From Candidatus Howiella sp. (GTDB lineage: Bacteria; Bacillota; Clostridia; Oscillospirales; Acutalibacteraceae), in assembly GCA_050946935.1 (NCBI GenBank), contig JBMNVR010000006.1, forward strand, positions 22,691 through 86,690: a stretch of DNA of 64,000 bases. Direction: 5' to 3'. A model generated the notes under the pieces. That model searched no databases. It saw nothing but the letters and a program-made list of their open reading frames with translations, and was not told the DNA's origin. A program made the position numbers and the translations under genes. This document shows, piece after piece, positions 12,192 to 61,878 of the stretch. Numbering within the stretch: position 1 is the first letter of the stretch; every line of letters begins with the position of its first letter.

Positions 12192-12395
12192 GCAACGGAG
12201 CTTTTCGCTGCAATGTGATACAGAGCCAGAACATACCTTCGGGCGTGCAAACGGGCGGGTCCTGCGCGACGGGACGCCGCGAACCATGTCAGGCGGGGAA
12301 CCGAGCAGCATTAAGGGGCACTCCCCGTGCGCCGCAGATTGCCTGTCCGTTTGCACTCCCAAGGGTATGTACCGCCGTTTGGCGGCGGCTCTGTA
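12192..12395 (+). ncRNA. ffs: Signal recognition particle RNA (long Bacillus-type scRNA/ffs)
   Basis: GGGTCCTGCGCGACGGG..GAACCATGTCAGGCGGGGAACCGAGCAGCATTAAGG..GTGCGCCGCAGATTGCCTG is near-identical to the B. subtilis scRNA domain IV region. GTGCAAACGG (12245-12254) pairs with CCGTTTGCAC (12345-12354). A terminator hairpin ACCGCCG-TTT-GGCGGCGG plus a T-run follows at ~12362-12395. The gene lies immediately upstream of dnaX, as in Bacillus. The 5' boundary is approximate. Confidence 0.75.
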
Positions 12396-21600: not shown

Positions 21601-22517
21601 TTGAACATGGTGTCTACCCAGCAGCAGCGCGTCTCTGACGCAGGGGTAAAATCGGTCACCGCGTCGATCAGCGTGTAATCCTTTCCGTCAGAGGAGCCGT
21701 AGAAATTCCAGGATTTCGGATCGCGCTCGCTGCTGTCGTTGGCCGTCATATAGGTATAAGCGTACACCGTGGTCGGCACGGTCGTCGTATAGGTCAGAGT
21801 GGGCACCTCGCCCGCGTCGAAATTGATGCCCATTTTGTTGCCGAGACCGGCAAAAAGCTTAGCCGGGCCTTCCCCGCCATCGGCCCCGGTTTTGCTGCGG
21901 CTTCCCGAAACAACCTTTGCGTTATCGGCATCCACATAGGAGGTCAGATCAGTAATGGCATCCTTGTAAAAATACATCTGCCGGGCATTGGCCACGGCGG
22001 AATACCCCTCCTCGCCGATATACTCGACTGAAATGGTCTGTGTACCCGTCAGTCCCGCAAAGGAGACGATGGTCGAGAGATTGCGATTCTCCCAACTGGC
22101 ATCGGAGGACCGGGTATAGGGCGGCAGCTTCACATTGCCAAGCAACGTGCAGTTTGCAGGATCAGTCCAGTAGTTGCCAAGATAGACGTTGGCGTTGGCC
22201 GAAGCCGGGCAGCGGTTATCCGTGCTGCGCCCCGAATAGTGGATTTGCATCGATGAGTAGGTTCCTTCCCCGAATTCGATGCTGTAAACCGCGACCGAAC
22301 CGTTGATCGTACTGATGTTGCTCGTCTCATTCGCAACACCGTAGTTGCCGTTGGAATTGGTTTCGGTCTTGCTGGTTGCACCAATGGTGGTGTTGCACTC
22401 TACCGTTAGGTAGTCGGCCGATGCATACTCGGCCACGACTGTAAACATAGCCATCGGCAAAGCCGAAAGACACAGGCAGACAGCGAGCAACACAGCAAGC
22501 AGCTTCTTTGCTTTCAT
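18675..22517 (-). CDS. Giant (~1280 aa) secreted multi-module protein. Modules: CBM-like N-terminal domain, two F5/8 type C modules, several FIVAR helical repeats, a ~300-aa central domain of unknown function, and the conserved C-terminal module
   Basis: Start MKAKKLLAVLLAVCLCLSALPMAMF at 22517 with RBS AGGAGGAAAAATC. First discoidin segment DPKSWNFYGSSDGKDYTLIDAV..YYKLEITAF. Second discoidin segment YEKLFDGDYTNKLY..NPVSWILYGSNDEGQSWTEI. C-terminus KYDITWNGSIVPGANT..YILLSTTDQVVAVIAE. Confidence 0.8.
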   Translation of the reverse strand: MKAKKLLAVLLAVCLCLSALPMAMFTVVAEYASADYLTVECNTTIGATSKTETNSNGNYGVANETSNISTINGSVAVYSIEFGEGTYSSMQIHYSGRSTDNRCPASANANVYLGNYWTDPANCTLLGNVKLPPYTRSSDASWENRNLSTIVSFAGLTGTQTISVEYIGEEGYSAVANARQMYFYKDAITDLTSYVDADNAKVVSGSRSKTGADGGEGPAKLFAGLGNKMGINFDAGEVPTLTYTTTVPTTVYAYTYMTANDSSERDPKSWNFYGSSDGKDYTLIDAVTDFTPASETRCCWVDTMFKVDSPAEYSYYKLEITAFRNITSGYCQFDEWRTYGSVYSGTAAIEETEALIAAIASTEPLTDAYFEAVDAARDAYAALSVENQAYVSNIADLTAPAAIAQAKADGKDYTYIYNTIEAIKAVMPITYKSKTSLDAIEAIYTDAVSALGETDVQTYVVNYADAKNAKATYAQVIADFGVTFTLNRDRMTATNQPWLALQTDDEWNTTLRAMEDTVKYFYSERMINIGVVSGRTGSTENHDSVFGAQLDNKFVDIGKNGANDNCWNPWNQDGRYWSYLIVPFSGMAFDVGGYMVVNDNHKQAPLGEEFDLTADGRTYQVMWDKTISHVTTPRENGKSITVDSVATYPGSGDYAAAIGNVFRYMYANYAQTNKWAGKTLGYPTANAGLAGENTYYQNFQSDDGSAVLLSTGDILSSVALATDAEGYEAQLKTAAGNGYVITGDMAAVIDAKGGATAFFSGTGDLNATESTAERLVFAKGVLTADGFESTLSEEELQTMAAPVVALIDAIGEVTTLGPSGNKLSAIEAAEAAYADLLVDARVYVTNYATLTAARAAYDALVDALEVYDNAKYVTPISGREHDSEGYEKLFDGDYTNKLYMNNDSYVDTVFSTATPVKISGYILSTGGDTAVADNTPGGRNPVSWILYGSNDEGQSWTEIINSALSLPTTNNTPVTMYLDSATEGYTYFKAAFTMSSVGKMQLGELALITTKEANYDAVLAALAKVPADLSIYTDASADALTAAVDAVEYNLAPAAQSTVDDYASAIESAVTGLEIKDADYSRVNTAKAKAAALTQANYTPESWLVLEEAVNAVVEGKKITEQSVVDGYADAIEAALSDLQLIADIADKVEMSVQISTGMVTANAEDGKYDITWNGSIVPGANTSVGEINESGIIFKAYGVYYATGSEVLDDYKNASAEQIRQIVFEQGTDIEVYTQFGFRLKGVLENRVRAAMFYLEYELDGQSYILLSTTDQVVAVIAE

Positions 22518-23087
22518 GATTTTTCCTCCTTCATATATTCCGTTTTCAGAACACCGAAAGTTATTTGGCCACAAAAACAGGTGTTTTTACGACACACTTG
22601 CTCAAACTTCACTATATTTTTACAAAAATCCGGAGAAGCTTTAAGCACAATAACTATCTTCCTATTATGTATAGCACATTTTGAAAAATAATTATATAAA
22701 AATTGTGCTCTAAAATTCCAAATTTTTGTTTTAAAATGTTTCAATTGAATCCACACTGAAAGATTCTCGCCTTTTTATTCACTTGAAGGATTCAAGCGTG
22801 GTAAAATTTTGTTAAATAGTATTTTTTTGTTATAGTCTGCTCGAATTTTTCCTTTACAACCATCCATTTGATAACAAAAGAACATCTTTTCTGAAAGAAT
22901 ACTCCAAAAAAGAAGAATTCGCCTTTTTTACACAGCACCATATGTTCGGGTCAGTAAATTGTCATATTTTTTCAATTTATTTGTATTATAGTTAAAACAA
23001 CTTAACTTTTTATTGATTTTTATGGACTATATTGTATAATATTAAGCATAAAGTTTATGTTTAGTATGTTATAGGAGGTAAAAGACA

Positions 23088-25794
23088 ATGAAAAAATATA
23101 TTTTCAAAGCGTTTTTGATCATCCTTGCTCTGGCCATGGCGCTGTCATCCGTGGGGACTACGCTGGTGGTCGCTGCTATCAACGACGGGGACGAGGTGAT
23201 CTATCTCTCCTCCAACGAGGGTCAGAAGTTGCTGACCGACTCCAACACCGGATTTGGCGATCTCACCTACAACCAGAATCTGAACAAGAACGGGAAGATC
23301 ACCTACAACAAGCCGAATACGACAGGGGATTCCTATACGGCAACCGAATCTGACAACGGATTGGTCGCCCATGCCGAGGCCAACCTCTATTATAATATTG
23401 AGGGGCAGGGCTTTACTGCGTTTGAAAGCTGGATTGGCATTGATTCAGTCACCGGCAACGGAGACGGGGTAGCCAGCGTAATTTTTGAATTTTATCTTGA
23501 CGACGCCCTAATCTATACGGCGAGCGAGCAGACCCTTACCTCGGCGGCCGAGTATGTTTCCATCAACATCAGCGGCGGCAAGACCTTCCGGATCCATATT
23601 GACCCGAACGGTGTGAACAACTGCGACCACGCCGTACTGGTCGAGGCCGCTTTCTTAAAACAGAGTGCGGAGGGGAAGACCACCGTGACCTCGATCACAC
23701 CGCAGTTTATGAACATGGAGTATGCGCAACCATATGTGTTTCCCTCCACCGCCAGCGTCACCCTGAGCGATGGCACCACGCAGGAATGTGCCGTGTCGTG
23801 GGACACCTCTTCATTTTCAGCGACCACACCGGGAGAGCAGCTACTAAACGGCACAATCAGGCTTGGTGACAACATGCTGAATCCGAATGGGGTGCATGCC
23901 TCCCTCAGCGTGACGGTCGGGGAGAAGGATGAAAACATTCTCTATCTTTCCGATCTGACGGTCCAGGATGAATCCTATGACTGGGCATCCTCCTGGCTGG
24001 ACGCTGCGGTGGAGAACAAGACCTGGCAGTTGAAGATTGAGGATGTCTATACCAACATGGTAAAGGGCGTCTCGGCCAATACCTACGCCTATCTGACCTA
24101 TGAAATTCCGACCGGTGCGACGAATTTTGAGGCGTATGTCGGCACAACAGCGGCTGCGTCCGGTAAGACCGCGTATTCCATTCGGCTTGTACGATACCTA
24201 TGAAAACAAGGATTCGACGTATACGGACGCGACGCCGGATAACATCAAGAACGCGGTTTTCACCAAGGACACCAATGCACAGAAGATCAGCGTAGACGTT
24301 ACCGGATACAATTACATCATGATCCGCTTTGAAAAGGTAAACGACGACAACTCCAGCGCGCACGGCACGTATGCGGACGCCAAATTTCTGATGGAAGACG
24401 CACCTAAAGCGGACTATACGGCCGTGAATGCGGCGATCGAGGCGGCCGAAAAGATCGACCGTACACAGTATACGGTAGCTTCCTGTAAAGCTGTGGACGC
24501 AGCGGTTGCCGCAGTGGTTACCGGTAAGTATGCCACTGAGCAGGCTGAAGTAGATGCCATGGCCGCCGCGATTGAAAACGCAATTTCGCAGTTGGCGCCC
24601 AAATCGGCTCATACCCTGTCCGACGTCTGGACGTTTAAAAACGAGGACAAAACCCTGTATGATTTGGAATCTGAAAAACAGATTACCATGTATGCGACAA
24701 CCGGGGATCTCTGGGATTCCCCGCGGGTGTACACCAACATGCTGCTGACCGATGCGTCAGAAGGGAATTTCACTGCGACGGTGCAGCTGACCTTCTCGCC
24801 GGACACCGATTATCAGTCGGCCGGCCTGATCGTATACGGCAGCGATGCGGAGATCTTCTCAGTACAGAGGCGGTATCACTCTGGCCACAACGGCAACTGT
24901 ATCTGCGGCGTTTCGGTGACGTCGGGCAACCCGAGCGAATCGTCGGTCAGCGACACCGGCGCGGAAACGATCTATCTGAAGGTAGAGCGGACAGGGAACA
25001 GCCTCGCCGGATACTGGAGCACGGACAATACCGAGTGGACGACCGTTTGGACCAAGGAAAACGCCTCGCTTTCGGGCACAGTTCAGGTAGGCCTGTATAC
25101 TGGCAAGGGAGGAGATTCCCCAAAGGCAGCTGAAATTCCGGCCACATTCCGTGATTTTACTCTGAATGATACAGTTGTAGCGTTTGCGGCGTCTATTTAC
25201 GCCGACTACACCGCGGTGGACGCGGCCCTTGACAAGGCTGCCGCTCTGACCGAGGGAGACTACACCGAAGCCTCCTGGGCGAAGCTGCAGACCGCGGTGA
25301 ACGCGGTAGTGCGCGACCTCACAGCCAGCGAGCAGGCGACGGTCGACGGCTATGCCGCCGCGATCGAGGCGGCTATCCTCGCCCTCGTACCTACATCGGT
25401 TGAGATGAGTCTGACCATCGGCGCCGGCATGGTGACCGCCGCGGCCGAGGGCAAGTACGACATCACCTGGAACGCACGGATTCTTCTCCCCGACGACAAG
25501 CTGGCTGAGGACATCAACGCAGCCGGTGTGAAATTCAAGAACTACGGCGTCTACTACGCGACCGGCAAAGATGTGCTGGCCGACTACAAGAATGCCTCGG
25601 CCGATCAGATCCGTAAGATCGTCTTTGCCCAGGGCGAGGATGTGGATGTCTACACCGCCTACGGCTTCCGGCTGAAGAACGTGACCGAGAACCGTGTACG
25701 CGCGGCCATGTTCTACATCGAGTACGAGCTGAACGGACAGAGCTATATCCTGCTCAGCACGGTCAACGAGGTGGTTGCCGTCATCACGGCGTAA
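23088..25794 (+). pseudogene. Frameshifted paralog of 15673..18285 (NPCBM-like, concanavalin-like, FIVAR and C-terminal module), split into ORFs 23088..24203 and 24100..25794
   Basis: The N-terminal ORF has a signal peptide (MKKYIFKAFLIILALAMALSSVGTTLVVA) and NPCBM-like content. It stops at 24203 (..GKTAYSIRLVRYL*). The reading frame continues in the +1 frame (IPFGLYDTYENKDSTYTDA..) and aligns to the intact paralog (..CTFAVYLDGEDVTPANV..). The frame switch lies near 24175-24190. Confidence 0.7.
24360..25794. repeat. Inverted-repeat arm B (matches 15673-17170)
   Basis: See arm A. The same identical or near-identical antisense ORF pairs apply. Confidence 0.8.
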
Positions 25795-25974: not shown

Positions 25975-27000
25975 TCATGCCTCTCCAATTTCCTCCCCGG
26001 TCAGCCGCGCGTCTTTCGAAGCGGCGTGCGGCTTTCCCCGGCGTTTGAGAAAAGCCAGCTTGGTCTCCGACAGCAGTACGGCGCAGAAAATCAACAGAAA
26101 GCCTGCGACAATGCGGAGGGTGAGCCTCTCTCCATACAACGCCACCGAAAAAGCAACGCCGAACACCGATTCCAGCGAAAGCAAAATCGAGGCGGTGGCG
26201 GGCGGGGTGTATTTCTGCCCGAAATTCTGCATCAGCAAAGCCGCCGCCGTACAGAATACGGCCAGATATCCAATACCAAGAAGCAGTTGCCGGTTCCAGA
26301 CAATCCCACCCCTATCCTCAAACAGCAGCGTACCGGCAAGAGCCAGCAGACCGCTGGAAGCAAACTGCACCACCGTAAGAAGAACGGGATCGCGCCCGTC
26401 ACTGAACCGACAAACAGCAATGATATGCGCGGCATAGAAAAAACCGCCGCAAAGGGTCAAAATATCTCCCCGGCCGATCGAAAAATCGCTCGTGAGGGAA
26501 ACCAAGCCGATCCCGGTGATGCACAACAAGGCGGCCGCAATGTTGTATCGATCCGGCCTCTTTTTCCCGACGATCCAGTAGAGAAACGGTACCAGCACGC
26601 AGTATACCGCCGTCAAAAAGGCGTTCTTGCCCGGCGTCGTCTCGGTAATACCCAGTGTTTGCAGAGCATAAGCGGCAAAAAGCAACAGGCCGAGGACGCC
26701 CCCCTGCCAAAGATAGCTGCGGTTCAGTCCGCGCATCCGTTTCCGGAACACGGCCGCAAGAATCAGGCTGGCCGACAAAAACCGAATCGCCAAAAGCAGA
26801 CAGGTAGGCACCGTGTCCACCACATCCTTGACGATGATAAAAGAACTGCCCCAAATCAGGGTCGCGGCCAGCAGCGCGGCACGGGCCAGTCCGTTGCGTT
26901 TCTTTTCCTTCACGTTTCTCTTGCCTTTCCAAAAAAACAGGCCCAACACGATCTCTGGGCTTGCCGTAAAATTCTCAACTGAACCAAGCCGGCAGCACAT
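25975..27000 (-). CDS. DMT-superfamily permease (two EamA domains)
   Basis: ~10 TM helices. LIWGSSFIIVK and FFYAAHIIAV are EamA-like segments. The exact start is uncertain: the ATG at 27000 or an internal GTG/ATG. Confidence 0.7.
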   Translation of the reverse strand: MCCRLGSVENFTASPEIVLGLFFWKGKRNVKEKKRNGLARAALLAATLIWGSSFIIVKDVVDTVPTCLLLAIRFLSASLILAAVFRKRMRGLNRSYLWQGGVLGLLLFAAYALQTLGITETTPGKNAFLTAVYCVLVPFLYWIVGKKRPDRYNIAAALLCITGIGLVSLTSDFSIGRGDILTLCGGFFYAAHIIAVCRFSDGRDPVLLTVVQFASSGLLALAGTLLFEDRGGIVWNRQLLLGIGYLAVFCTAAALLMQNFGQKYTPPATASILLSLESVFGVAFSVALYGERLTLRIVAGFLLIFCAVLLSETKLAFLKRRGKPHAASKDARLTGEEIGEA

Positions 27001-27005
27001 AACTG

Positions 27006-27411
27006 ATGAATGAGATAATCAAGCCGGCCACAACGACACCGGCCGCAATGGTCGGCAGTGATTTTCTGATCCGAATATCCAGCGCATCAGCCACCAGCGC
27101 GCCGGTCCAGGCGCCGGTTCCGGGCAGCGGAATGGCCACCAGAATAAACAACCCCCATATTTTATATTTATTTACGGTTGCGCTGCCTTCTCCACCTTAC
27201 GGTCAAGGAACGCCATGAATCGGTCAAAGGCCCTGATTTTTCGCAGCAGAGCAAAAATTTTCTTCAAAGACAGCAAAATAAAAGGGATCGGCAGCATATT
27301 GCCCAGAAAGCAGATCAGGAACACCTTTTCCCAGGATATGTTCAGCAGCGCCGCCGCAATCAGTCCGCCGCGCAGTTCGATCAGCGGCAACATTGAAACT
27401 ATAAATACCAC
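27006..27411 (-). pseudogene. Small multidrug export protein (COG2426-like), interrupted by a 1-nt frameshift
   Basis: N-terminal ORF 27172..27411 (..LRKIRAFDRFMAFLDRKVEKAAQP*). The C-terminal continuation lies in another frame (..NKYKIWGLFILVAIPLPGTGAWTGALVADALDIRIRK..). Together they match the family pattern EK..KYGFWGLL..AIPLPGTGAWTGA. The shift lies in CAACCGTAAATAAATAT around 27165-27175. Confidence 0.5.
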
Positions 27412-27453: not shown

Positions 27454-28764
27454 TTACCATGCCGTCGCTCTATCCCCCTCGATATTCGCCGTCCACACTG
27501 GCAAAGCCGCATCCCCGGCGTTTGAAGCAAAATAGCTGTATCCGGACCAAAGCGCCAGCGAAAGCAGCGCGATCACAATAACAGCAATGACAAATTTAGC
27601 CGCACGGCTGACAGGCAGCAGTTCTTCCTCCACCGGCGCCGCAGGATCGCGATCATTCGATAATTCCACCGGCTCCACCCAATCCCCCGGCTTGGGCGTA
27701 TCCACAAAATTCGGGACACGCATTTTCTCCATCTTGACCGGCGGGAGGCCTTTCTCCGCATCCGCGCAGTCTGCCGGATCATCCTGCCGAAAATCAACTA
27801 CAGGCGCTGTCTCCTGTTCTATACAAGATGAGGCAGCGGGGCGAATATCCTTCAGCTCGACATGTGCCTGAGGCAGCGGTTCAGGTGCGGCGGACGGAAA
27901 AGAGAGCTTTTCGGGCAGCCGTTCTGCCTTCCCCGCGTGGTCGGAGGATAAGCGCAGCCGGGGCAACTCCGCCAGAATTTTGCGTTCGGCGGCCGAAGGC
28001 TCTTCCACCTGCGGAATGTGCGGCAAATCTCTGCCGGCCGCCGGATCCGTACCCGGCCGCCGGGGCGTCAGAACGACCCGCTCGCTTTTAATCGGTTGGA
28101 AAGGTGCAGAAGGAATTTCTCTTTTCTCCCTCTTTATCGGAGCGGCCGCCGCTGACTGCGTTTCCACGGGCAGCGGCTTGTCCGGCGTATTCTGCGAGAG
28201 GGACCCGGTCTCTTCCCCGTCGGATAATTCACCGGCCTCCTCCGTCGGAACCGGACGGACGTCACCGCTGCCGGGCGCCGCCCCCGCCGGCTGCACGGCC
28301 GGCGGATCGGCCCACATATACCGGGCCTGAATATGCGGCAAAATTTTCTCCCGCGCCAGACGAACACGGCCAGACCGCTCTTCATCCAGGAAAAAGATCA
28401 TCTGCGGTCCGCTGCAAAGCATCGCGCCACGCAAACAGCCGTCCAATGCAAACGGAACCGCCCCAGCCGGAAAAACCAGTGTTTCTTCCGGTGCTGCGCC
28501 GGCCAATCCGACCCGCTGGCAGGAAAACCCGATCGCCGCCGCGACCGTCGCCGGCAGATATATGTTCCCGTAAAACCCGCCGACAATCAGGATGACCTCG
28601 CTCCGGCCGACGGCGCGGCTGAGGGCGTGCACCGCCTCCGTTTTGGTGGAGGCGGTTTGGGTCAGTAAGCGCAGGTCGTAACCGCCGCCATACAGCTCGG
28701 ATTCAAAGCCCCAATCGGCCGGTGTGCAAAAATAAATAATGTCTATGCGTACATCCTTGTTCAA
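27454..28764 (-). CDS. Hypothetical protein: ~150-aa N-terminal globular domain, long Pro/Glu/Ala-rich disordered region, single C-terminal TM helix
   Basis: TTG start at 28764 with RBS AAGAGGA 8 nt upstream. C-terminal ..LLPVSRAAKFVIAVIVIALLSLALWSGYSYF. It lies 36 nt downstream of the sortase-fusion ORF on the same strand. Confidence 0.5.
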   Translation of the reverse strand: MNKDVRIDIIYFCTPADWGFESELYGGGYDLRLLTQTASTKTEAVHALSRAVGRSEVILIVGGFYGNIYLPATVAAAIGFSCQRVGLAGAAPEETLVFPAGAVPFALDGCLRGAMLCSGPQMIFFLDEERSGRVRLAREKILPHIQARYMWADPPAVQPAGAAPGSGDVRPVPTEEAGELSDGEETGSLSQNTPDKPLPVETQSAAAAPIKREKREIPSAPFQPIKSERVVLTPRRPGTDPAAGRDLPHIPQVEEPSAAERKILAELPRLRLSSDHAGKAERLPEKLSFPSAAPEPLPQAHVELKDIRPAASSCIEQETAPVVDFRQDDPADCADAEKGLPPVKMEKMRVPNFVDTPKPGDWVEPVELSNDRDPAAPVEEELLPVSRAAKFVIAVIVIALLSLALWSGYSYFASNAGDAALPVWTANIEGDRATAW

Positions 28765-28800: not shown

Positions 28801-31638
28801 TTACTCGATATCCGGTTCCGCGTCCGCCGTCGAACCTCCGGTATCCACGTCGGCGCCGGAGCCGGCAGAGGTTTCCGACGACATGATCGCAACGGTCGAG
28901 GTTGTGCGCGAAGCCGCGCCGGCGACGGTCGAAGCCGTTCGCGACGTGGAGCCGGTCTGCCCGGCCGTGCCCGTGCGCTTGGAACTGGTCGCAGCAGCCG
29001 CCTTACTGGCCGCGGCATTCTGCGCAGCCGCGTCGGCCGTCGTGTTGAACTCTTCGGTATCTATATCCAGCGACGGCTTGGAACCGCCCTTCTTATCATA
29101 CCACGCCTGCGGATAAAGCGGCGAGGGATTCAGAACGACGGCCGACGAATCAACCTCGCTGCTCTCCCCATCCCGAACCTTGCGTGCCATCACAACCAGC
29201 CGGGCGTTGTCGAAATCATAAATGCAGGTCGACAGGGTCAAAATCTCATCATACGGCTGGACGTCGACCGGCGTATTGTAAATCGAACGGGCTTTGCAGT
29301 TCTCAATCCAGCGGAGGAATTCCGACTGGGTGGAAAAATCCGGAATCCGGTAATTAAAGATAAATCCGCCGTCATGCTTCGACTCGGTATTCGTTATGAT
29401 CACGGCAAAGATTTTATACTCGCCCAAATCATACAGCGTATCATAGTCGATACGCATATGCTCCTTGGTAAAGGCCAGATCCCGGTACTTGCGGAGGTTA
29501 TTGAACATCGTACCGTCATTCATATTGTGCCCGTAGATCACCTGATTTTGGCTGACCGTGTCGCGTGAAAAGGTCGAGCTTGAATCCAGGAACAAGGCGC
29601 CGTACATATTGTTTTCCCTGTACATGTTGTGATTGACGTAGTAGTTGTTTTTCTCCTGCTCGGTGGTACCCTTGTCGGTGTTGTGAAAAACCGGGTTATC
29701 AATGTTGGTATCGGCAATGCTCAACCAGCCGATGGTATCGGAATTCATCGCGAGCAGCGCGTCAAATTTTTTATAGATGCCGTTTTCCCCAACCTCGTTG
29801 TTGTCAGCGACTACCTTGTATAAGCCCTGCACATTGGTAAGCTGCTGCCTCTGAAAATATCCGTTGATGTAATAATTGGCGATATAAATCCCCGACCCGA
29901 TCAGCGCAATCAGCGCAACCAGGAAGATCAATTTACGCACAACCTCTCCCGGCCGGTCGCCCTTGCAGGGAAAGAGGAAGCACAAGAATCGTTTGTACCA
30001 CGGCTTTTTCTTTGCCGGCGGCAAAGGCGGCTGTTTTTCATCCGGCAGCGCTGCCTTTCGTCCCGCCAGGTCGGAAAGGCTAACGGCATCCGCATCATCC
30101 CCGGGGAAGGGAACGTTCTGCCCAATCTCCTCCGGTGTGAGGGCGCCGGTGCGTGCCGGCACATTGGCGTTGGCATCCGGGTCGGCGGCGGACGCAGGGG
30201 AGAAGCCGGAATACAGCTCCTGCACATTCTTCTCCCCTTCACCCGACGCCCCGGTCTGCTCGGCTGCCGTTTTCTCCGCATCCGCCCGGACAGCCGCTGC
30301 GCCGGAGAACACCGCAAGCTCGGCCGCTGTCGGCAGCAGATGATCGAAAATACCCGCGCTGTACAGATTGACAGTCGGAACGCTCTCTTTCTTCGGCAGG
30401 CCGCCGCAAAGATACCGCCGGGCAAGATCAAGAACCGATTTGGCTGCGACCTCACGAATTTTTTCCCGCTCGTCGCTGCGGCCGCGGCCGAGCATCAGCC
30501 GCTCGACCCAGACGGCCGTCCCGTCGCACAACGCGATATAGACAAGGCCGACCGGTTTCTCCTCTGAGGCGGCGGGTCCGGCAACTCCGGTGACCGACAC
30601 GCCAATATCTGCACCGCTGATCTCCCGCACGCCGAGGGCCATGCCCGCCGCCGTCTGCGGACTGACCGCCCCATGTTCGGCAATAACCTCGGCCGGGACG
30701 CCCAGCGCGTTGGTCTTGACCGCGTTGGCATAAGCCACAATACCCATATCGAACACAGCTGAGGAACCGGACACCTCGGTCAGCTTTTTGGAAAGCAGGC
30801 CGGCGGTGCAGGACTCTGCGGTCGCAATTTTCTTTTTCTGCTCCTGCAGCAGGGCGATCACCGCCTGCTGCAAATTCTCAGTATCCACACCGTACACATA
30901 GCCGCCCATACGAGCCGTAACCTTCTCAACCATCGGGCGGCAGAGATGGTCGGCCGCGGCCTGATCCCGGCCGGAAGCGGTCACACGGATCTCCACCTCG
31001 CCGGTTTTGGCATAGGGCGCGACGGTCGGATTCTCCGACTCGAACAGATCAGAAAGGGCTTCAGCCGCCGCAGCCTCCCCAATCCCGAACAGGCGAACCG
31101 AGTGGGAGACGATCGCCGCCCCGCTTTTTCCTGCCAGATAGGGGCGAACCTGCGTCTCAAACATCGGCCGCATCTCATCCGGCGGCCCGGGCAGCAGAAT
31201 AATCGTCTGATTTCCGGAGGAAATAGCGATTCCCGGCGCCGTGCCGTTATCATTCTGAAACACCTCCGCCCCCTGCGGAACCAAGGCCTGCTTGCGGTTA
31301 TTTTCGGTCATTTTACGCCCGCCCCGGCGGAAATATGCCTCCATCCGGCGAAGGCTCTCTCCATCCTCAACCAACGACAGGCCGAGCAGGTCGGCCACCG
31401 TCTCTTTGGTCAGGTCATCCCCCGTCGGGCCAAGTCCGCCGGTCAGCAGCACAAGATCGCTGCGGCCGAGAGCCTCACCCACCGCCTCCTTCAGACGGGC
31501 GGGATTATCCCCCACCACCGTCTGATGAAAAAGATTGATGCCCAGCGCCGCCAACTCGCGGGAGAGATACTGCGCGTTGGTATTGACGATATCACCGAGC
31601 AACAGTTCGGTTCCCACGCAGATGATTTCACCGTTCAT
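28801..31638 (-). CDS. In-frame fusion: CinA (competence/damage-inducible protein A, MoCF-binding domain plus CinA C-terminal domain), then a ~150-aa Pro/Ala-rich linker, a TM helix, and a class B sortase domain
   Basis: Start MNGEIICVGTELLLGDIVNTNAQYL at 31638. CinA domains: LLTGGLGPTGDD and KKIATAESCTAGLLS. Linker: PDANANVPARTGALTPEE..KQPPLPPAKKKPWYKRF. TM helix: VVRKLIFLVALIALIGSGIYI. Sortase B signatures: NSDTIGWLSIADTNIDNPVF, VIYGHNMNDGTMF, ILTLSTCIYDFDNARLVVMARKV. There is no stop codon between the CinA and sortase parts. A possible internal GTG with GGAG lies at about 29940. Confidence 0.7.
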   Translation of the reverse strand: MNGEIICVGTELLLGDIVNTNAQYLSRELAALGINLFHQTVVGDNPARLKEAVGEALGRSDLVLLTGGLGPTGDDLTKETVADLLGLSLVEDGESLRRMEAYFRRGGRKMTENNRKQALVPQGAEVFQNDNGTAPGIAISSGNQTIILLPGPPDEMRPMFETQVRPYLAGKSGAAIVSHSVRLFGIGEAAAAEALSDLFESENPTVAPYAKTGEVEIRVTASGRDQAAADHLCRPMVEKVTARMGGYVYGVDTENLQQAVIALLQEQKKKIATAESCTAGLLSKKLTEVSGSSAVFDMGIVAYANAVKTNALGVPAEVIAEHGAVSPQTAAGMALGVREISGADIGVSVTGVAGPAASEEKPVGLVYIALCDGTAVWVERLMLGRGRSDEREKIREVAAKSVLDLARRYLCGGLPKKESVPTVNLYSAGIFDHLLPTAAELAVFSGAAAVRADAEKTAAEQTGASGEGEKNVQELYSGFSPASAADPDANANVPARTGALTPEEIGQNVPFPGDDADAVSLSDLAGRKAALPDEKQPPLPPAKKKPWYKRFLCFLFPCKGDRPGEVVRKLIFLVALIALIGSGIYIANYYINGYFQRQQLTNVQGLYKVVADNNEVGENGIYKKFDALLAMNSDTIGWLSIADTNIDNPVFHNTDKGTTEQEKNNYYVNHNMYRENNMYGALFLDSSSTFSRDTVSQNQVIYGHNMNDGTMFNNLRKYRDLAFTKEHMRIDYDTLYDLGEYKIFAVIITNTESKHDGGFIFNYRIPDFSTQSEFLRWIENCKARSIYNTPVDVQPYDEILTLSTCIYDFDNARLVVMARKVRDGESSEVDSSAVVLNPSPLYPQAWYDKKGGSKPSLDIDTEEFNTTADAAAQNAAASKAAAATSSKRTGTAGQTGSTSRTASTVAGAASRTTSTVAIMSSETSAGSGADVDTGGSTADAEPDIE

Positions 31639-31800
31639 ATATGTCACCACGCCTTTGCGGGACAAAGGCTTCCTTTCTTTGGAAGTTTACACCGTATTTC
31701 CGCCGCTGCATTCAAACCATGCCCGCCTCTCTTTTTTACGATTGCCGGCGGGCAAAAGCCGTGTCAAATTCCGACGACGGAATAACCGGTTAAAGCTATT

Positions 31801-32970
31801 CTACCCCACATATTGCACCCTTACGCCGTCCATCGCACGGGCGATCAGGTTTTCAAGATCAAGCGCCGACTCCGCCTCGGCCACCTTTTCGAGTACCGGC
31901 CGGGTCTTGGGATGCCGCGGGGTAAAGACGGTACAGCAATCCTCAAACGGCAGGGTGGAGATCTCAAAGGTGTCAATCTTTCTGGAAATGGCAATGATCT
32001 CCTCCTTATCCATGCCGATCAGCGGCCGGAACACCGGCATACCCACCACCGCATCGGTCACGCCGAGCGCCGGCAGGGTCTGGCTTGCGACCTGCCCGAC
32101 GCTCTCCCCCGTGATGAGGGCGAGGGCGTTTCGCCGCCGCGCAAGCTGCTCGGCGATCCGCATCATAATACGCCGCATGATCAGGGTAAAATATTCCTCC
32201 GGGCAATGGCGGCCGATCTCCTCCTGAATTTCGGTAAAGGGGACGATCTCCAGCCGGATGGTGCTGCTGTATTCAGCCACTTTTTCAAGGAGATTTATGA
32301 CCTTCAGCTCGGCCCGCTGACTGGTATAGGGCGGGCTGGCGAAATGGACGGCGTTCAGCTCCAGCCCCCGCTTGGCCATCATCCAGGCTGCCACCGGGCT
32401 GTCGATGCCGCCCGAAATCAGGACGGTCGCCCGGCCGCCGCTGCTCACCGGCATACCGCCGGCGCCGGTAATCTGCCCCGCATGGACGTAGGCGCCGAAA
32501 TCCCGCACCTCCACCATCACGACCACATCGGGGTTGTGCACGTCGACCGACAGATTGCGGAATCTGGAAAGGAGATAACCGCCCACCTCCCTGCAAATCT
32601 CGGGCGACTTACAGGAGAAGGTCTTGTCGGCGCGCTTGGCCTCCACCTTAAACGTAGAGATACCGCGCAGCGTATCGGCCAAATAATCGGCGGCGGTGCG
32701 CTTGATAACCTCCAGATCCTTTTCAGTCACGGCCGCCCGGCTGAAGGCGGCGATGCCGAACACCTTTTTCACCCGCTCAACCGCCTCGTCAAAATCGTAG
32801 CATTCTGTCCCCGGCTCCAGATAGATCGTCGACTGGGCCTTACGGATTTTTACCGGGCCAAGCGGCGAAAGGCTCCGCCGCAGATTTTTAATCAAAATAT
32901 CCTCAAAGGTCGAGCGGTTCAGTCCCTTTAAAGCCAACTCTCCGTTTTTGATCAGTAAAATTTCCTTCAT
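31801..32970 (-). CDS. thiI: tRNA 4-thiouridine(8) synthase
   Basis: MKEILLIKNGELALKGLNR (THUMP domain) and ATVLISGGIDSPVAAWM (PP-loop). Start ATG at 32970. Confidence 0.85.
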   Translation of the reverse strand: MKEILLIKNGELALKGLNRSTFEDILIKNLRRSLSPLGPVKIRKAQSTIYLEPGTECYDFDEAVERVKKVFGIAAFSRAAVTEKDLEVIKRTAADYLADTLRGISTFKVEAKRADKTFSCKSPEICREVGGYLLSRFRNLSVDVHNPDVVVMVEVRDFGAYVHAGQITGAGGMPVSSGGRATVLISGGIDSPVAAWMMAKRGLELNAVHFASPPYTSQRAELKVINLLEKVAEYSSTIRLEIVPFTEIQEEIGRHCPEEYFTLIMRRIMMRIAEQLARRRNALALITGESVGQVASQTLPALGVTDAVVGMPVFRPLIGMDKEEIIAISRKIDTFEISTLPFEDCCTVFTPRHPKTRPVLEKVAEAESALDLENLIARAMDGVRVQYVG

Positions 32971-33174
32971 TCTGTAACCGTGCCTTTCCGTACCGTCAGA
33001 CTTTTTTTCAAAAACGATGCCGCGCACCGTTTGTTTTACCCTGAAAAGCCATGCGTCAAACAGCACGGCTGTTTTTTCTTTCCTCTCCGGGATTTCGGCG
33101 CCGCGCCATCCGCGCGGCAGAAGGCGGTTTGCGCCAACAAAAATTCCCGCGTAAACCGTTCGAAGAAGGGTTTT

Positions 33175-34308
33175 CTATCTTTTTTTCAACCGGGCGGCCG
33201 CCGCGCGAATGCCTTCGGCCAGGGCGGCGCATTCCTCCGCCGTGTTCTCCCTTGAGAAGCTGATGCGCACCGCGCTGTCCACCCGCTCCCGCGGCAGGCC
33301 CATGGCCGCCAGCACATGGCTGCCCTTCCCTCTGGCGCAGGCGCTCCCGCTGGAAACATAGAGACCCCGCTCCTCCAGAAAATGCAGCATGGTCTCCGAC
33401 CTTATGCCGGCTACCGACAGGTTGAGAATATAGGGCGAGCCATCGGCCGGCGAGTTGATCTCGACGCCCGGCAGACCACGAAGCCCCTCGAGCACCGCCG
33501 CTTTCAGCATGGCCGCATGAACTGCAGCAGTCTCCGCCTCCGGAAGAGATTCAACCGCCCCGAGCAGGCCGGCAATCAGCGGCGACGCCTCGGTTCCGGG
33601 GCGCAGCCTTTTCTCCTGCTCGCCGCCGAAGACGCGGGGAAGGATGCGCGCCTCCCGCCGCTTGACCAGCGCACCAACCCCCTTTGGGCCGTGGATTTTA
33701 TGGGCGCTGAGGGTAATGAGATCGGCCCCCAATCGTTCCATTTTAAACGATAGCTTGCCGAACGCCTGCACACAATCGCAGTGCAGCAACGCCGCCGGGC
33801 TGGCCTCTTTAAGAAGCCGCGCCGCCTCCCCCACCGGGTTGACACTGCCGGTCTCGTTATTCACCAGCATCAGGCTGAGGAGAATGGTCTCTCTATTCAC
33901 AGCGGCAGCCACCGTTTCGGGCAAAATCCGGCCGTCAGGCGCGGGAGAAAGACGGATTACCTCAAACCCCTGACGCTCCAGCTCGTCTGCCGCCTCCAGC
34001 ACCGAGGAATGCTCGACCGCCGAAACAACCACCCGCCTGCCCCGACGCCGCAGAGCCGCCGCCCCCCCAAGCAGGGCTAAATTGTTCGCCTCAGTTCCAC
34101 CGGAGGTAAAGTATACCTCCTCCGCCCTGGCGCCGACCCGACCGGCGACCGCGCGGCGCGCCTCCTCCAGCACCGATTCGGCGGCGACGCCCATGTCGTA
34201 TAGGGAGGAGGGATTGCCCCAGATCTCGGTCAGCATTCGTTCCATACGCGAAACCGCTGCCGCGCAGGGCTTTGTTGTCGCGCTGTTGTCAAAATAACCG
34301 CCGTACAT
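33175..34308 (-). CDS. Cysteine desulfurase (class V aminotransferase, NifS/IscS-like), paired with thiI
   Basis: FDNSATTKP.., FTSGGTEANNLAL.., SAHKIHGPKGVGAL (PLP lysine motif). Confidence 0.85.
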   Translation of the reverse strand: MYGGYFDNSATTKPCAAAVSRMERMLTEIWGNPSSLYDMGVAAESVLEEARRAVAGRVGARAEEVYFTSGGTEANNLALLGGAAALRRRGRRVVVSAVEHSSVLEAADELERQGFEVIRLSPAPDGRILPETVAAAVNRETILLSLMLVNNETGSVNPVGEAARLLKEASPAALLHCDCVQAFGKLSFKMERLGADLITLSAHKIHGPKGVGALVKRREARILPRVFGGEQEKRLRPGTEASPLIAGLLGAVESLPEAETAAVHAAMLKAAVLEGLRGLPGVEINSPADGSPYILNLSVAGIRSETMLHFLEERGLYVSSGSACARGKGSHVLAAMGLPRERVDSAVRISFSRENTAEECAALAEGIRAAAARLKKR

Positions 34309-34593
34309 GAAACCGTCAACCTCCTGAAAATACAGAGACTCCGCCCCATTATCATATTGTTTTACATTATACTACAAATGGCTTCCCTTTACAATAATCA
34401 AGTTGTAAATTTGATGTGAACGCTCTCTGTTCCGCACCGAAAAGCGGTAGGCCGGTTCAAAAAGCCCAAATACCCCCGCAAACTTTTATAAGGCAGGAAT
34501 TTTTTTGGTACAACTGGCAAAAATAAACTGTACCAAGGCTGCTTTCGGGCAAACGCAAAGCGGCAAAAATAAATCGAAATCAAGGTGAGCGAC

Positions 34594-35919
34594 ATGAAAA
34601 CAAGCACCCTGTCCAAACGGGCCTGTGTCCGGATCATCAGCTTCGCGGCGGCCTTTGTGATCGTCGCCGGCGTGGCGCTGATTACCCTTTACACCGAACG
34701 CAACAATTACCGGATGCAGGTCGAATACGCCTACGAACTGGCGCTCGAAGACCTGACCGCCTCGCTGGAGCGGATTGACACCGAGCTGAAAAAAGGGGTG
34801 TACTGCACGTCGGCCGCCGGCTGGAATGAGATCGCCTCCAACCTGTCGGCCGCGGCCGGCACGGCAAAATCGGCCATCTCCTCCCTGCCCTTCTCGGGCG
34901 GAGAGCTGACCACCGTCGGCAAATTTTTATCCCAGGTCGGTAACTACGCCGGCAGCCTTTCGCGCAAAATGGTAGAGGGCACGCCGCCGGCCGACCGGGA
35001 TACCCAAAACCTCCGACTGCTGTCCCAGACGGCCGCCTCCCTCTACACGGCGGTCAGCGACATCCGATACGGCGTTTCCGGCTTTGCCAACAGCGCCATC
35101 GGCGAAGCCGGCAGCGCTGTTGAGGAACTGTCCGCCGCCTTGATCGAAACCGACGAGGCCATCACCGATTATCCCACGCTGGTGTACGACGGCCCCTTCT
35201 CCGACCACCTGCTGAACGCCGCGCCCAAGCTGCTCTCCGGCCATGCCGAAATCACGCGGGAAGGGGCGCGGCAGGTCGCCGCCCTCTATCTTGGTGAGAG
35301 CACCTCCGACATCGCCGACGACGGGGAGGAGGAAAGCGCCATGCCGAGCTACTGCTTCTCGAGCGGAAACACCTCGATCTATATCACCAAGCAGGGCGGA
35401 TTCTGCTCCTATTTCCGCAAATACCGCGAGATCGGCGACCCGCAGAAAACCTATGACGAGGCCATCCGCATCGCAGCCGAGTATCTTGACCGGCTGGAGC
35501 TGGGCAGCTTCACCGACAGCTACTACATGACGGACGAGGGAATGTGCGTCATCAACTTTGCCTATACGAAGGACGGAGTGATCTGCTATCCCGATCTGAT
35601 TAAGGTGGGGGTGGCGCTGGACACGGGGGAGGTGCTGCTGTTCGAGGGGCGTGGGTATATTATGAACCACACCGCCCGCGAACTTCCGGCCATCACCAAA
35701 ACGGTCGAGGAGGCCGAGGCGACCCTCAGCACCTCTTTAACGGTCGAGCGTGTGGGCACGGCTCTGATCCCCACCGACGGCGGAGAAGAAAAACTCTGCT
35801 ACGAGTTTTCCTGCACCGACGGAGATCAAAGAATTCTGGTTTATGTAAACTGCAACACCCTCGAGCAAGAGAACATTCTGATTCTTCTGATGGTGGACGG
35901 CGGGATGCTGACGAGGTAG
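34594..35919 (+). CDS. YpeB-like sporulation/germination protein (N-terminal membrane anchor, C-terminal PepSY-like domains)
   Basis: ATG at 34594 (MKTSTLSKRACVRIISFAAAFVIVAGVALITLY). Architecture and the ..ERIDTEL..WNEIASNLS..LPFS motifs resemble B. subtilis YpeB. The C-terminus has PepSY-like repeats. Confidence 0.55.
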   Translation: MKTSTLSKRACVRIISFAAAFVIVAGVALITLYTERNNYRMQVEYAYELALEDLTASLERIDTELKKGVYCTSAAGWNEIASNLSAAAGTAKSAISSLPFSGGELTTVGKFLSQVGNYAGSLSRKMVEGTPPADRDTQNLRLLSQTAASLYTAVSDIRYGVSGFANSAIGEAGSAVEELSAALIETDEAITDYPTLVYDGPFSDHLLNAAPKLLSGHAEITREGARQVAALYLGESTSDIADDGEEESAMPSYCFSSGNTSIYITKQGGFCSYFRKYREIGDPQKTYDEAIRIAAEYLDRLELGSFTDSYYMTDEGMCVINFAYTKDGVICYPDLIKVGVALDTGEVLLFEGRGYIMNHTARELPAITKTVEEAEATLSTSLTVERVGTALIPTDGGEEKLCYEFSCTDGDQRILVYVNCNTLEQENILILLMVDGGMLTR

Positions 35920-37347: not shown

Positions 37348-38406
37348 TTATTGCAGTCCTTTCAGCACGCGGGAGAGAATGTCTCCAACCAGCTCGGCTG
37401 AATATTCCGCCTCGGCCAGGGTGTTGGCCTCAGTCCCGATCTCGATCAGCATCGAGCCGGAGGTCAGATTCTGATTATAGCAGCGGGGCACCAGCATAAT
37501 CGAGCGGGCCAGCCCGGGATATTTCAGCTCGGCCGCCTGCTGAAACCGCATGGCCAGCCGAAGATTCTGCCGCCAGTTGGGATGATTGGTGATACTGCCG
37601 TCCTCGCACCCCATGACCAGCATGATCTGCGCGGCGTTTTTATCTCCGATTTTCTGCACTGCCTTGACCTTCTCAGCCTCACTCCCGACTGAGTCACGGT
37701 GGAGGTCGAGCACCACCTTGATGGAGGGATATTTTTTCAGATTGGCTGAAACGGTCGCCGCCGACCGATCGTAGCTGCCGGTATAGGACTCGGCGTCGTG
37801 CTGGGTCATGTCGTGCACGACCGAGATGCCGTTGGCCCGCAAAATCTCAGCAACCTTCTCTCCGATGCGGTTCATGTTGACCGCGTCGTCGGTGCTGCGC
37901 GCCGCGTCGGAGGCGCTGTAGTAATCCCGCTCCTCCAGCATATAGCTCTCGGTGGCGTGGGTGTGCATAATCAGCACCTCCGGCTCGGCAGAGAAGGTCA
38001 TCTGAAAGCCGACCGGGCTTTGCAGTTCGGTCTCTATATCGACCGATTTCGAGGTGCTGTTTTTGATATAGATATTGCCGAACGACAGCCCGGCCGTATA
38101 GGGCGAGATGAATTTCGAGGTGATTTTGCCCAGCGCCTCCCCCGGGTCGGCGGCCGCTGCCGCCGTGTCGGAGGAAGTTGCAGCTCCGCCGGTTTCTTCC
38201 TCCGTGTCGGCCACCAGTCCGACCGTATCGTCGGACATACTTTCAGCAGGGGCGGCCGTCCCACCCTTCAGATTGCCCACCATAGCCGACAAGGCCGCAG
38301 CCTCTCCCGCCCGACCGAGCAGGGAGGTATCGGCCGCCTGTCCGGCCAGCAACACACAGAAAACGGCGAGGAAGGCGAGCAGCGCCGCTAAAAACAGCTT
38401 TTTCAT
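37348..38406 (-). CDS. spoIIP: Stage II sporulation protein P (SpoIIP) family
   Basis: Signal/anchor MKKLFLAALLAFLAVFCVLLAG. The VLIMHTHATESY motif and ..VVLDLHRD..EIGTEANT match the SpoIIP family. It is adjacent to gpr, as in Bacillus. Confidence 0.75.
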   Translation of the reverse strand: MKKLFLAALLAFLAVFCVLLAGQAADTSLLGRAGEAAALSAMVGNLKGGTAAPAESMSDDTVGLVADTEEETGGAATSSDTAAAAADPGEALGKITSKFISPYTAGLSFGNIYIKNSTSKSVDIETELQSPVGFQMTFSAEPEVLIMHTHATESYMLEERDYYSASDAARSTDDAVNMNRIGEKVAEILRANGISVVHDMTQHDAESYTGSYDRSAATVSANLKKYPSIKVVLDLHRDSVGSEAEKVKAVQKIGDKNAAQIMLVMGCEDGSITNHPNWRQNLRLAMRFQQAAELKYPGLARSIMLVPRCYNQNLTSGSMLIEIGTEANTLAEAEYSAELVGDILSRVLKGLQ

Positions 38407-61834: not shown

Positions 61835-61878
61835 ACAGTCCATCCTCCCGGAAGTTTTGGCCACAAACCGCAGCAAAC

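Follow-up and report, generated by a model that had tools for sequence, protein, structure and literature searches.

We analysed a 64,000-nucleotide stretch of the Candidatus Howiella sp. genome (Acutalibacteraceae; contig JBMNVR010000006.1, positions 22,691 to 86,690; hereafter the window) and found on its minus strand a gene whose product joins a complete CinA, through a linker and a transmembrane helix, to a class B sortase. The open reading frame (ORF) is one genuine gene, and its product is a bitopic membrane protein predicted to have its N-terminus inside and its C-terminus outside the cell. That the CinA–sortase fusion is real and conserved, with both halves intact, is near certain. The gene is followed by a degenerate paralogue, and our best explanation is a genuine fusion with two working halves whose cytoplasmic part would act as a scaffold together with this dead paralogue. 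Taken whole, we hold this explanation to be fairly probable; the scaffold part, weighed by itself, is tentative and on balance doubtful.

The minus-strand ORF at 28801..31665 is unbroken and encodes 954 residues from a TTG at 31665 or 945 residues from an ATG at 31638. The ATG start matches the N-terminus common to the fusion family (M..EIICVGTELLLG). The initial annotation of this DNA had described a single in-frame 945-residue CinA–sortase ORF at 28801-31638, which was borne out by the ORF itself, by Pfam, by NCBIfam and by conservation across the family; the motifs it quoted (LLTGGLGPTGDD, KKIATAESCTAGLLS, KKKPWYKRF...VVRKLIFLVALIALIGSGIYI, NSDTIGW, VIYGHNMNDGTMF and ILTLSTCIY..R) are all present. 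Pfam placed MoCF_biosynth at residues 4-169 (E 4.9e-39), CinA_KH at 178-250 (1.5e-25), CinA at 254-409 (8.3e-49) and Sortase at 665-821 (2e-11). E-values of this order put the matches to both curated families well outside what chance would give. The parts of the gene are given below, one per line.

28801..31638 (-), CinA–sortase B fusion gene; 945 residues from the ATG at 31638, stop codon at 28801-28803
31123..31638 (-), CinA N-terminal MoCF/COG1058 domain, residues 1-172; blocks GTExxxGxxxNTN, VGDN, GGLGPTxDDxT, GTAPG and LPGPPxE present
30883..31113 (-), CinA KH-type middle domain, residues 176-252; PF18146, E 1.5e-25
30403..30882 (-), CinA C-terminal PncC (nicotinamide mononucleotide (NMN) deamidase) domain, residues 253-412; blocks AESCTxG, GxS, YxNxxK, GAVS, MAxG, TGVAGP, KPVG and RxxxR present
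30004..30402 (-), variable Ala/Pro/Gly/Glu-rich linker, residues 413-545; predicted disorder 453-539
29932..30003 (-), conserved cytoplasmic juxtamembrane motif, residues 546-569, PWYKRF..FPCKGDxxxEvvRK
29938..29940 (-), internal in-frame GTG (V567), not conserved
29869..29931 (-), transmembrane helix, residues 570-590, LIFLVALIALIGSGIYIANYY; predicted positive-inside
29065..29841 (-), class B sortase catalytic domain, residues ~600-836, plus C-terminal extension, residues 837-858
29529-29527, 29226-29224 and 29202-29200 (-), sortase triad His704, Cys805 and Arg813
28804..29064 (-), low-complexity Ala/Thr/Ser/Gly-rich extracytoplasmic tail, residues 859-945; predicted disordered

Residues 1-410 belong to the NCBIfam CinA equivalog NF001813 (519.4 bits against a cutoff of 379), and the CinA half also passed TIGR00200 (427.7 bits against 243.15). 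Its domain order, PF00994, PF18146, PF02464, is that of a full MoCF/COG1058–KH–PncC protein, and Foldseek aligned the N-terminal half with Thermus thermophilus CinA (4ct8_A) at an E-value of 1.2e-39, a template modelling score (TM-score) of 0.89 and 35% identity. CinA has been described as a dimer with two enzyme activities in the recycling of pyridine nucleotides (PMC4246079, PMC3680494); it is dimeric in the solved structure (PMC4246079), and the blocks M-I and M-II have been reported as the COG1058 dimer interface (PMC3855486). Sequence blocks that separate active from inactive CinA/PncC lineages are also available (PMC3855486, with further definitions from PMC4246079). We scored GTExxxGxxxNTN, VGDN, GGLGPTxDDxT, AESCTxG, GxS, YxNxxK, GAVS, TGVAGP ([ST]G[IV]AGP), KPVG and RxxxR; every active-lineage block was found in the query, and the blocks are 90-100% conserved among 121 fused proteins. 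By these blocks, the cytoplasmic CinA half appears active.

Class B sortases are cysteine transpeptidases that attach proteins to the wall. The extracytoplasmic half of the fusion protein passed the class B sortase model TIGR03064 marginally over residues 566-816 (156.1 bits against a cutoff of 153.75), while stand-alone paralogues of the same sortase clade scored 160.7-167.5 bits. A sequence profile of the sortase part matched SrtB of Bacillus anthracis, Clostridioides difficile, Staphylococcus aureus, Listeria monocytogenes and Clostridium perfringens with E-values of 1e-45 to 1e-59 (PDB entries 1rz2, 1.9e-59; 5gyj, 1.4e-52; 1qwz, 1.7e-47), and Foldseek gave TM-scores of ~0.9 to S. aureus and B. 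anthracis SrtB (4lfd, 1rz2 and 2oqz). Across the 121 fused proteins His704 is conserved in 99%, Cys805 in 98% and Arg813 in 100%. With an intact His-Cys-Arg triad, the class B sortase half likewise looks active. Just before the transmembrane helix lies a juxtamembrane motif with the family consensus LPWKGDxxxExIRK (FPCKGDRPGEVVRK in the fusion protein), which is also kept in stand-alone members of the clade, and the sortase domain is followed by a conserved, clade-specific C-terminal extension, NxxPLYPxxWYxxxxxxxP. Both elements are features of the sortase clade and not of the fusion as such. Conservation within the extension is confined to N837, Y842, P843, Y847 and P855; the idea that the NxxPLYP segment is an NPxTx-like pseudo-substrate was dropped, there being no Thr/Ser at the scissile position.

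An AlphaFold model of the fusion protein, built with 79 family sequences, had a mean predicted local distance difference test (pLDDT) score of 83. It showed confident folds at residues 1 to ~450 and ~620-860, disorder at residues 453-499, 507-539 and 874-945, and a single long helix (563-610) spanning the transmembrane region. The hydrophobic helix 570-590 is preceded by KKK...RK, which predicts an N-in orientation with the sortase outward. The topology first assigned to the protein, with CinA inside, a transmembrane helix and a class B sortase outside, is thus consistent with the positive-inside prediction, the AlphaFold model and the fold matches. Its disordered linker was also correctly recognized, at an overestimated length: ~150 residues had been given, and the linker is a little shorter, at ~90-135 residues according to how it is delimited. 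The position of the C-terminal tail is filled in relatives by PASTA (PF03793), Big_2/PKD or SpoIID/LytB domains. Although GC content dips to 0.46-0.50 over the sortase-coding part, against ~0.62, GC content at third codon positions (GC3) is even across all parts of the gene (0.69-0.76). The dip had raised the idea that the sortase part was acquired horizontally; this was rejected in view of the uniform GC3, and the lower GC of this part is attributed to amino-acid composition. Rfam and tRNA scans at the fusion locus gave no match.

The fusion is widely conserved. A homologue search of ~5.8 billion proteins gave 775 matches at E<=1e-10. The proteins of the best 120 clusters are 814-1269 residues long and 42-100% identical to the query; CinA domains occur in all of them, and a precomputed Sortase match in 118. 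In an 80%-identical relative from another assembly (locus L081), the same ORF stands in the same gene context. The nucleotide alignment of the two genes contains eight indels (3, 15, 3, 3, 9, 3, 6 and 6 nt), six of them within the linker. All are multiples of three, and the frame is therefore under selection across the CinA–sortase junction; the alignment also gave a clean answer to the check for an indel artefact in the linker that had been advised at the outset. The linker is the least conserved part in this comparison (63.5% nucleotide identity, against ~85% in the domains). An exact-sequence lookup of the 945- and 954-residue proteins returned no record, and public pipelines name the ~950-residue fusion proteins only 'competence/damage-inducible protein A' or 'nicotinamide-nucleotide amidase'.

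The gene directly downstream had been noted as encoding a Pro-rich membrane protein. The protein turned out to be a degenerate paralogue with a pseudo-MoCF domain. Its features are as follows.

27454..28764 (-), partner gene, degenerate paralogue, 436 residues
28315-28764 (-), pseudo-MoCF domain of the partner, residues 1-150
27541-27600 (-), transmembrane helix of the partner, residues ~389-408; Pro/Ala/Glu-rich linker before it, ~30-residue tail after it

The first ~150 residues of the partner are conserved in the gene after the sortase at 41-45 of 80 related loci. Comparison with hhalign matched this N-domain to the CinA MoCF profile with a probability of 98.6% (E 5.8e-16), or 99.3% (E 4.4e-20) with a deeper alignment; the KH, PncC, sortase and juxtamembrane profiles, used as controls, stayed below 1%. 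The best PDB sequence match was Streptococcus mutans CinA (6mr3), a weak one at E 0.12. Searching for homologues of the pseudo-MoCF domain, within the limits of the word index, gave no matches with the single sequence and two short ones with a profile, and a single-sequence AlphaFold prediction (pLDDT 33) was useless as a model. Alignments of the domain show substitutions or deletions at the GTExxxG, VGDN, GGLGPTxDD, GTAPG and LPGPPxE positions, and because these are the catalytic and ligand-binding blocks it was classed as a degenerate pseudo-MoCF and not as an enzyme.

In relatives the partner is often more elaborate. At at least 10 loci it carries past the transmembrane helix a sortase-like domain (E 1e-36 to 1e-50 with the hidden Markov model of the clade), in which Lys or Asn stands in place of the catalytic His, and neither the TLSTC cysteine nor the Arg is retained. 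Pfam SpoIID matches were found in 17 of 39 downstream proteins of relatives; on the SpoIID/LytB model TIGR02669 the scores are 88-150 bits (cutoff 83.3), and the SpoIID equivalog remains under its cutoff. Neither Pfam nor NCBIfam matched the 436-residue partner of the window, which has no SpoIID/LytB domain. The window protein represents a recurrent short class that ends ~30 residues after the transmembrane helix, with no ectodomain. The partner at locus L081 has the same short form, with N-domain, transmembrane helix and tail conserved and a variable repetitive linker, and the partner is a maintained gene on this ground.

We further explored the gene context in relatives. A scan of one genome per species showed that at least 567 genomes encode a relative of the sortase domain. 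We fetched 80 loci, most of them labelled Acutalibacteraceae, Ruminococcaceae, Oscillospiraceae or 'Eubacteriales' and including the cultured Marasmitruncus massiliensis; arrangements were counted in the 59 loci, the window among them, that extend upstream as far as thiI. The conserved order in Oscillospirales is nifS – thiI – cinA/pncC – sortase (1-3 copies) – pseudo-paralogue: ORF clustering over the 80 loci found a cysteine desulfurase in 57 and thiI in 60, followed by the sortase region and the downstream gene. In relatives the operon genes lie a few nucleotides apart or overlap by ATGA. The upstream elements in the window are:

31801..33066 (-), thiI (tRNA 4-thiouridine synthase), conserved upstream operon neighbour
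33175..34308 (-), class V aminotransferase/cysteine desulfurase (nifS/iscS-like), start of the conserved gene cluster
34366..34394 (-), best sigma-70-like promoter match, TTGTAA-17-TATAAT, upstream of nifS (consensus scan only)

The same consensus scan found no comparable promoter site and no convincing terminator between thiI, the fusion gene and the partner gene. A cinA or pncC sequence stands directly before the sortase in 52 of the 59 loci, in the following forms:

full CinA fused to the sortase, 19/59 loci
KH-PncC fused, 2/59 loci
MoCF domain only fused, 3/59 loci
complete cinA as a separate abutting gene, 13/59 loci
pncC-only gene abutting, 15/59 loci
neither cinA nor pncC, 7/59 loci, Ruminococcus-type

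Comparison of orthologues, which had been proposed to distinguish a fusion from separate genes, thus revealed both: the fusion in 24 of the 59 loci, a separate full cinA in 13 and a pncC-only gene in 15. Separate cinA and srtB orthologues had been expected to indicate an artefact; such loci exist, with ATGA overlaps or an in-frame stop, and are genuine alternative structures. At two loci with a separate cinA (L010 and L012), a single stop codon divides the two ORFs, which share a reading frame. Among 892 representatives of the sortase clade (50% identity, E<=1e-30) we found full-CinA, MoCF-only and PncC-only fusions and many stand-alone forms. Fused and unfused forms are interleaved in a rough neighbour-joining tree, in which the pseudo-paralogue clade is deep; given this interleaving, cinA and the sortase gene have been joined or separated on several occasions. 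The association of cinA with the sortase predates the full fusion and extends beyond it.

Several relatives extend this series. In Eubacterium sp. CAG:180 (L035, 5932-11192), a pncC-only gene (158 residues) is followed by a short stand-alone sortase, a second sortase and then a pseudo-MoCF–transmembrane–SpoIID/LytB protein. The second sortase of this type has a ~200-residue acidic/Lys-rich disordered N-terminal extension and the juxtamembrane motif, and the genes are linked by ATGA overlaps; L023, L033, L037, L042, L046, L047, L059 and L069 are similar. Variants of ~1290 residues occur in Clostridium sp. CAG:169 (L077, 1887-5762) and at L074 (6516-10397), with a degenerate CinA part (KH and a weak or partial PncC, MoCF not detected) and, after an active-looking sortase, three Big_2 domains and PKD-like domains at the C-terminus. 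In M. massiliensis (NZ_FYDE01000003.1; L060, 6651-10553), CinA, class B sortase and SpoIID/LytB are combined in one 1301-residue protein, and another stand-alone sortase gene lies 212 nt downstream of this triple fusion. At L039, L056, L071, L073, L075 and L078, the copy with the juxtamembrane motif appears, by a simple pattern test, to be without the His/Cys signature, and the upstream stand-alone copy retains it; in this lineage the paralogues may have divided the active and the dead role in another way. The window also encodes YpeB (34585-35919 (+), PF14620/PF20769) and SpoIIP (37348-38406 (-), PF07454), 3-7 kb upstream of the operon, and the organism is therefore a spore-former; in 18 related loci, too, ypeB lies beside nifS in divergent orientation.

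The simplest history would be that an ancestral CinA(MoCF)–transmembrane–sortase fusion was duplicated as a unit, that one copy lost catalysis and became the degenerate paralogue, and that the cinA–sortase junction was afterwards repeatedly split and re-fused. In the present protein each enzyme half would work in its own compartment, with NMN/ADP-ribose recycling inside and Cys-transpeptidation on the wall side. The CinA-type cytoplasmic domains and the dead paralogue would form a cytoplasmic assembly or scaffold module at the membrane that holds the active sortase together with the pseudo-sortase/SpoIID-LytB partner. In this organism the partner would be reduced to its pseudo-MoCF domain and membrane anchor, and the sortase substrate would be encoded elsewhere in the genome. 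In this way the CinA-type domains may scaffold a sortase/wall-remodelling complex.

Several observations weigh against this explanation. The fusion sortase scores marginally on TIGR03064 (156.1 versus 153.75), the dimer-interface blocks M-I and M-II are not conserved in the pseudo-MoCF domain, and no sorting-signal substrate is co-located with the sortase. In the seven Ruminococcus-type loci the sortase follows thiI with no adjacent cinA or pncC, and members of the sortase clade can therefore do without a CinA neighbour. A neutral operon neighbourhood would likewise show frequent fission, variation in the linker and a gene order shared with the unrelated housekeeping genes thiI and nifS.

That neutral history is the main rival: adjacent housekeeping genes were joined by loss of a stop codon, the halves act independently and the tether has no mechanistic meaning, a cytoplasmic enzyme in front of an N-in anchor being topologically harmless. 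It draws on the separate abutting cinA or pncC genes of 28/59 loci, with their ATGA overlaps or single in-frame stop, on the interleaved tree, on the lower nucleotide identity of the linker, on the functionally unrelated thiI and nifS in the operon, and on the seven loci where the sortase has neither gene beside it. However, the association persists over hundreds of species and in at least three fusion types (full CinA, MoCF-only and PncC-only), and Marasmitruncus has a triple fusion. A dead MoCF domain has moreover long been retained before the transmembrane helix of the paralogue, even where the ectodomains are lost, as in the window and at L081. Such retention is hard to account for without a function of the cytoplasmic domain that is linked to the membrane protein, and we consider neutral fusion rather unlikely.

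A second alternative concerns the ectodomain, which together with the pseudo-sortase/SpoIID-LytB partner might serve as a peptidoglycan-remodelling or sporulation machine and not in protein anchoring. This is a variant of the scaffold explanation and not exclusive of it. SpoIID/LytB domains occur in the partner family, and PASTA (PF03793) or SpoIID/LytB domains in some of the fusion proteins. Spore formation is common to the organism and its relatives, YpeB and SpoIIP being encoded in the window. A further point in its favour is that no sorting-signal substrate is co-located. The reading of the surface-protein cluster nearby as classical sortase substrates did not hold: its NPCBM/Big_4/GH43_C2/DUF1349 proteins have no transmembrane helix and no LPXTG/NPxTx-type signal, share a soluble C-terminal module and were rejected on these classical criteria. 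A sorting-signal scan (NPxTx or (S/P)PxTG, transmembrane helix and basic tail) found no such ORF in the 64-kb window, and a classical one occurs in only 2 of the 80 related loci. Against a wall-remodelling role, the triad and fold match bona fide protein-sorting SrtB enzymes, the partner of the window is itself without any ectodomain, and we know of no sortase that acts on peptidoglycan itself. The SpoIID/LytB proteins also do not reach the cutoff of the SpoIID equivalog, and the canonical spoIID gene is part of different operons (bioRxiv 10.1101/2022.02.25.481979). We judge this variant to be unlikely.

A third alternative is that the ORF yields two products, by an internal start at the GTG at 29940 or by proteolysis in the linker, so that the fusion is only a transient or precursor form. 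The GTG at 29940-29938 lies after GGGAGAGG, as the initial annotation had pointed out, and an N-terminus M-RKLIFLVALIALIG... would resemble ordinary SrtB anchors; the long disordered linker is protease-accessible, and unfused arrangements are viable in relatives. However, a start codon at this position is present in only 1/13 fused and 1/25 unfused genes, and a conserved internal start was rejected as a feature of the family, though this one organism might still use it. The Shine–Dalgarno-like string is explained as the codons of a conserved Gly-Glu and ends 2 nt before the GTG, which is poor spacing, a start there would drop the juxtamembrane motif that stand-alone clade sortases retain, and the reading frame is kept through the linker. 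We regard two products as improbable.

The idea that a sequencing or assembly indel artificially joined two genes, which two apparent frameshifts in other genes of the window (an Sm_multidrug_ex gene near 27175 and an NPCBM-family gene near 24100-24200) made a reasonable caution but which does not apply to the fusion ORF, has next to no chance of being true and was ruled out by the recurrence of the fusion in at least 120 separate clusters of proteins, which come from many assemblies, by its presence at 24/59 genome loci, and by the L081 alignment, with the same ORF and frame-preserving indels only.

Compared with CinA of T. thermophilus (PDB 4CT8) and S. mutans (6MR3), the CinA half of the fusion shares the three-domain order, the fold and the active-enzyme blocks. 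Known CinA proteins are soluble and ~410 residues long, whereas here the C-terminus runs into a linker, a transmembrane helix and an extracytoplasmic enzyme. In Bacillus and Streptococcus cinA adjoins recA; the fusion gene follows nifS–thiI and is not beside recA. With the class B sortases of S. aureus, B. anthracis and C. difficile (SrtB; TIGR03064), the sortase half shares the fold, the His-Cys-Arg residues in YGH, TLSTC and AR contexts, and a membrane anchor N-terminal to the catalytic domain. In contrast to these enzymes, its anchor is internal, behind a 545-residue cytoplasmic region, the LPWKGDxxxExIRK motif and the NxxPLYPxxWY...P extension are specific to its clade, no isd-type operon or NPxTx/(S/P)PxTG substrate is near the gene, and it is paired with a catalytically dead paralogue.

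SpoIID/LytB proteins (B. subtilis SpoIID, an engulfment lytic transglycosylase; LytB, an amidase enhancer) offer a further comparison: their domain passes the TIGR02669 cutoff in the partner of relatives and in the Marasmitruncus fusion, whereas here it falls below the SpoIID equivalog, is combined with pseudo-MoCF and pseudo-sortase domains, and is absent from the partner in the window. Degenerate LytM factors are also known from wall enzymes: EnvC and NlpD activate amidases, and the LytM domain of SpoIIQ is inactive in bacilli. By analogy only, an active enzyme beside a paralogue that keeps the fold without the catalytic residues would resemble these enzyme/pseudoenzyme pairs, with the difference that both the cytoplasmic (MoCF) and the extracytoplasmic (sortase) domain of the paralogue are degenerate here. 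The degenerate LytM domain of SpoIIQ has been mentioned before (bioRxiv 10.1101/2022.02.25.481979).

The fusion had been thought to be undescribed, and we likewise found in the open-access literature no description of a CinA–sortase fusion, a sortase with an NMN deamidase, a pseudo-sortase or a class B sortase–SpoIID/LytB pairing. A CinA domain is occasionally fused to other domains, and such proteins have been set aside (PMC3855486). The family described here constitutes a new clade of class B sortases. The competence- and damage-induced protein CinA was recognized ~30 years ago, and its enzymology is that of an NMN deamidase and ADP-ribose pyrophosphatase; sortases are normally simple anchored ectoenzymes. 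In a whole order of Clostridia that are abundant in gut and rumen, all or part of CinA is hard-wired to a sortase, and the same organisms keep a dead copy of this two-sided architecture, often joined to a SpoIID/LytB wall-acting domain. The fusion gives a concrete, testable handle on a membrane-proximal role of CinA, and the natural fusion/fission series (full CinA, MoCF only, PncC only, separate genes, triple fusion) is suited to asking what tethering contributes. Current CinA-only names hide the sortase of the ~950-residue proteins, and the partner gene is without annotation.

A more far-reaching possibility, which we consider a long shot, is that the fusion protein pairs with its dead paralogue in a transmembrane complex of enzyme and pseudoenzyme, in which the cytoplasmic CinA-type domains, by binding or turning over the pyridine-nucleotide by-products NMN and ADP-ribose, control extracytoplasmic sortase/SpoIID-LytB wall remodelling, or the reverse. 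If true, such control by nicotinamide adenine dinucleotide (NAD) status would be a previously unknown link to cell-wall or spore-envelope assembly in spore-forming Oscillospirales. CinA was long ago observed to associate with the membrane, and the same control, if true, could explain this observation.

Other observations were made in the window. The Sm_multidrug_ex gene (PF06695-type; 27000-27411 (-)), downstream of the partner, is frameshifted near 27175: frame 0 stops at ...KVEKAAQP*, the remainder (GSATVNKYKIWGLFILVAIPLPGTGAW...) is in another frame, and the L081 gene is intact (162-193 residues). The NPCBM/Big_4/GH43_C2/DUF1349 gene at 23088-25794 (+) is split into overlapping ORFs (23088-24203 and 24100-25794) with NPCBM fragments in both; the call for its L081 counterpart comprises at least 872 residues and runs off the locus end, and the split is likely a frameshift, from either a sequencing error or a pseudogene. 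Four secreted multidomain proteins, encoded at 240-2930 (-), 15673-18285 (-), 18675-22574 (-) and 24100-25794 (+), have in common a C-terminal module of ~200 residues with 43-96% identity and the pattern ...YDITWN...YGVYY.T...GFRLK.V..R.R...FY..Y...G..Y...S. It has no Pfam match, transmembrane helix or sorting motif and may be an undescribed anchoring or binding domain. A 1152-residue secreted protein (58418-61876 (-)) ends, by eye, in a duplicated dockerin-type repeat (GDLDGDGSVTVSDVVELRQ... / GDINKDKLLTVSDVVDLRK...), which would suggest a cellulosome-type organism. A bacterial small signal recognition particle RNA (RF00169, 64.9 bits) lies at 12253-12351 (+).

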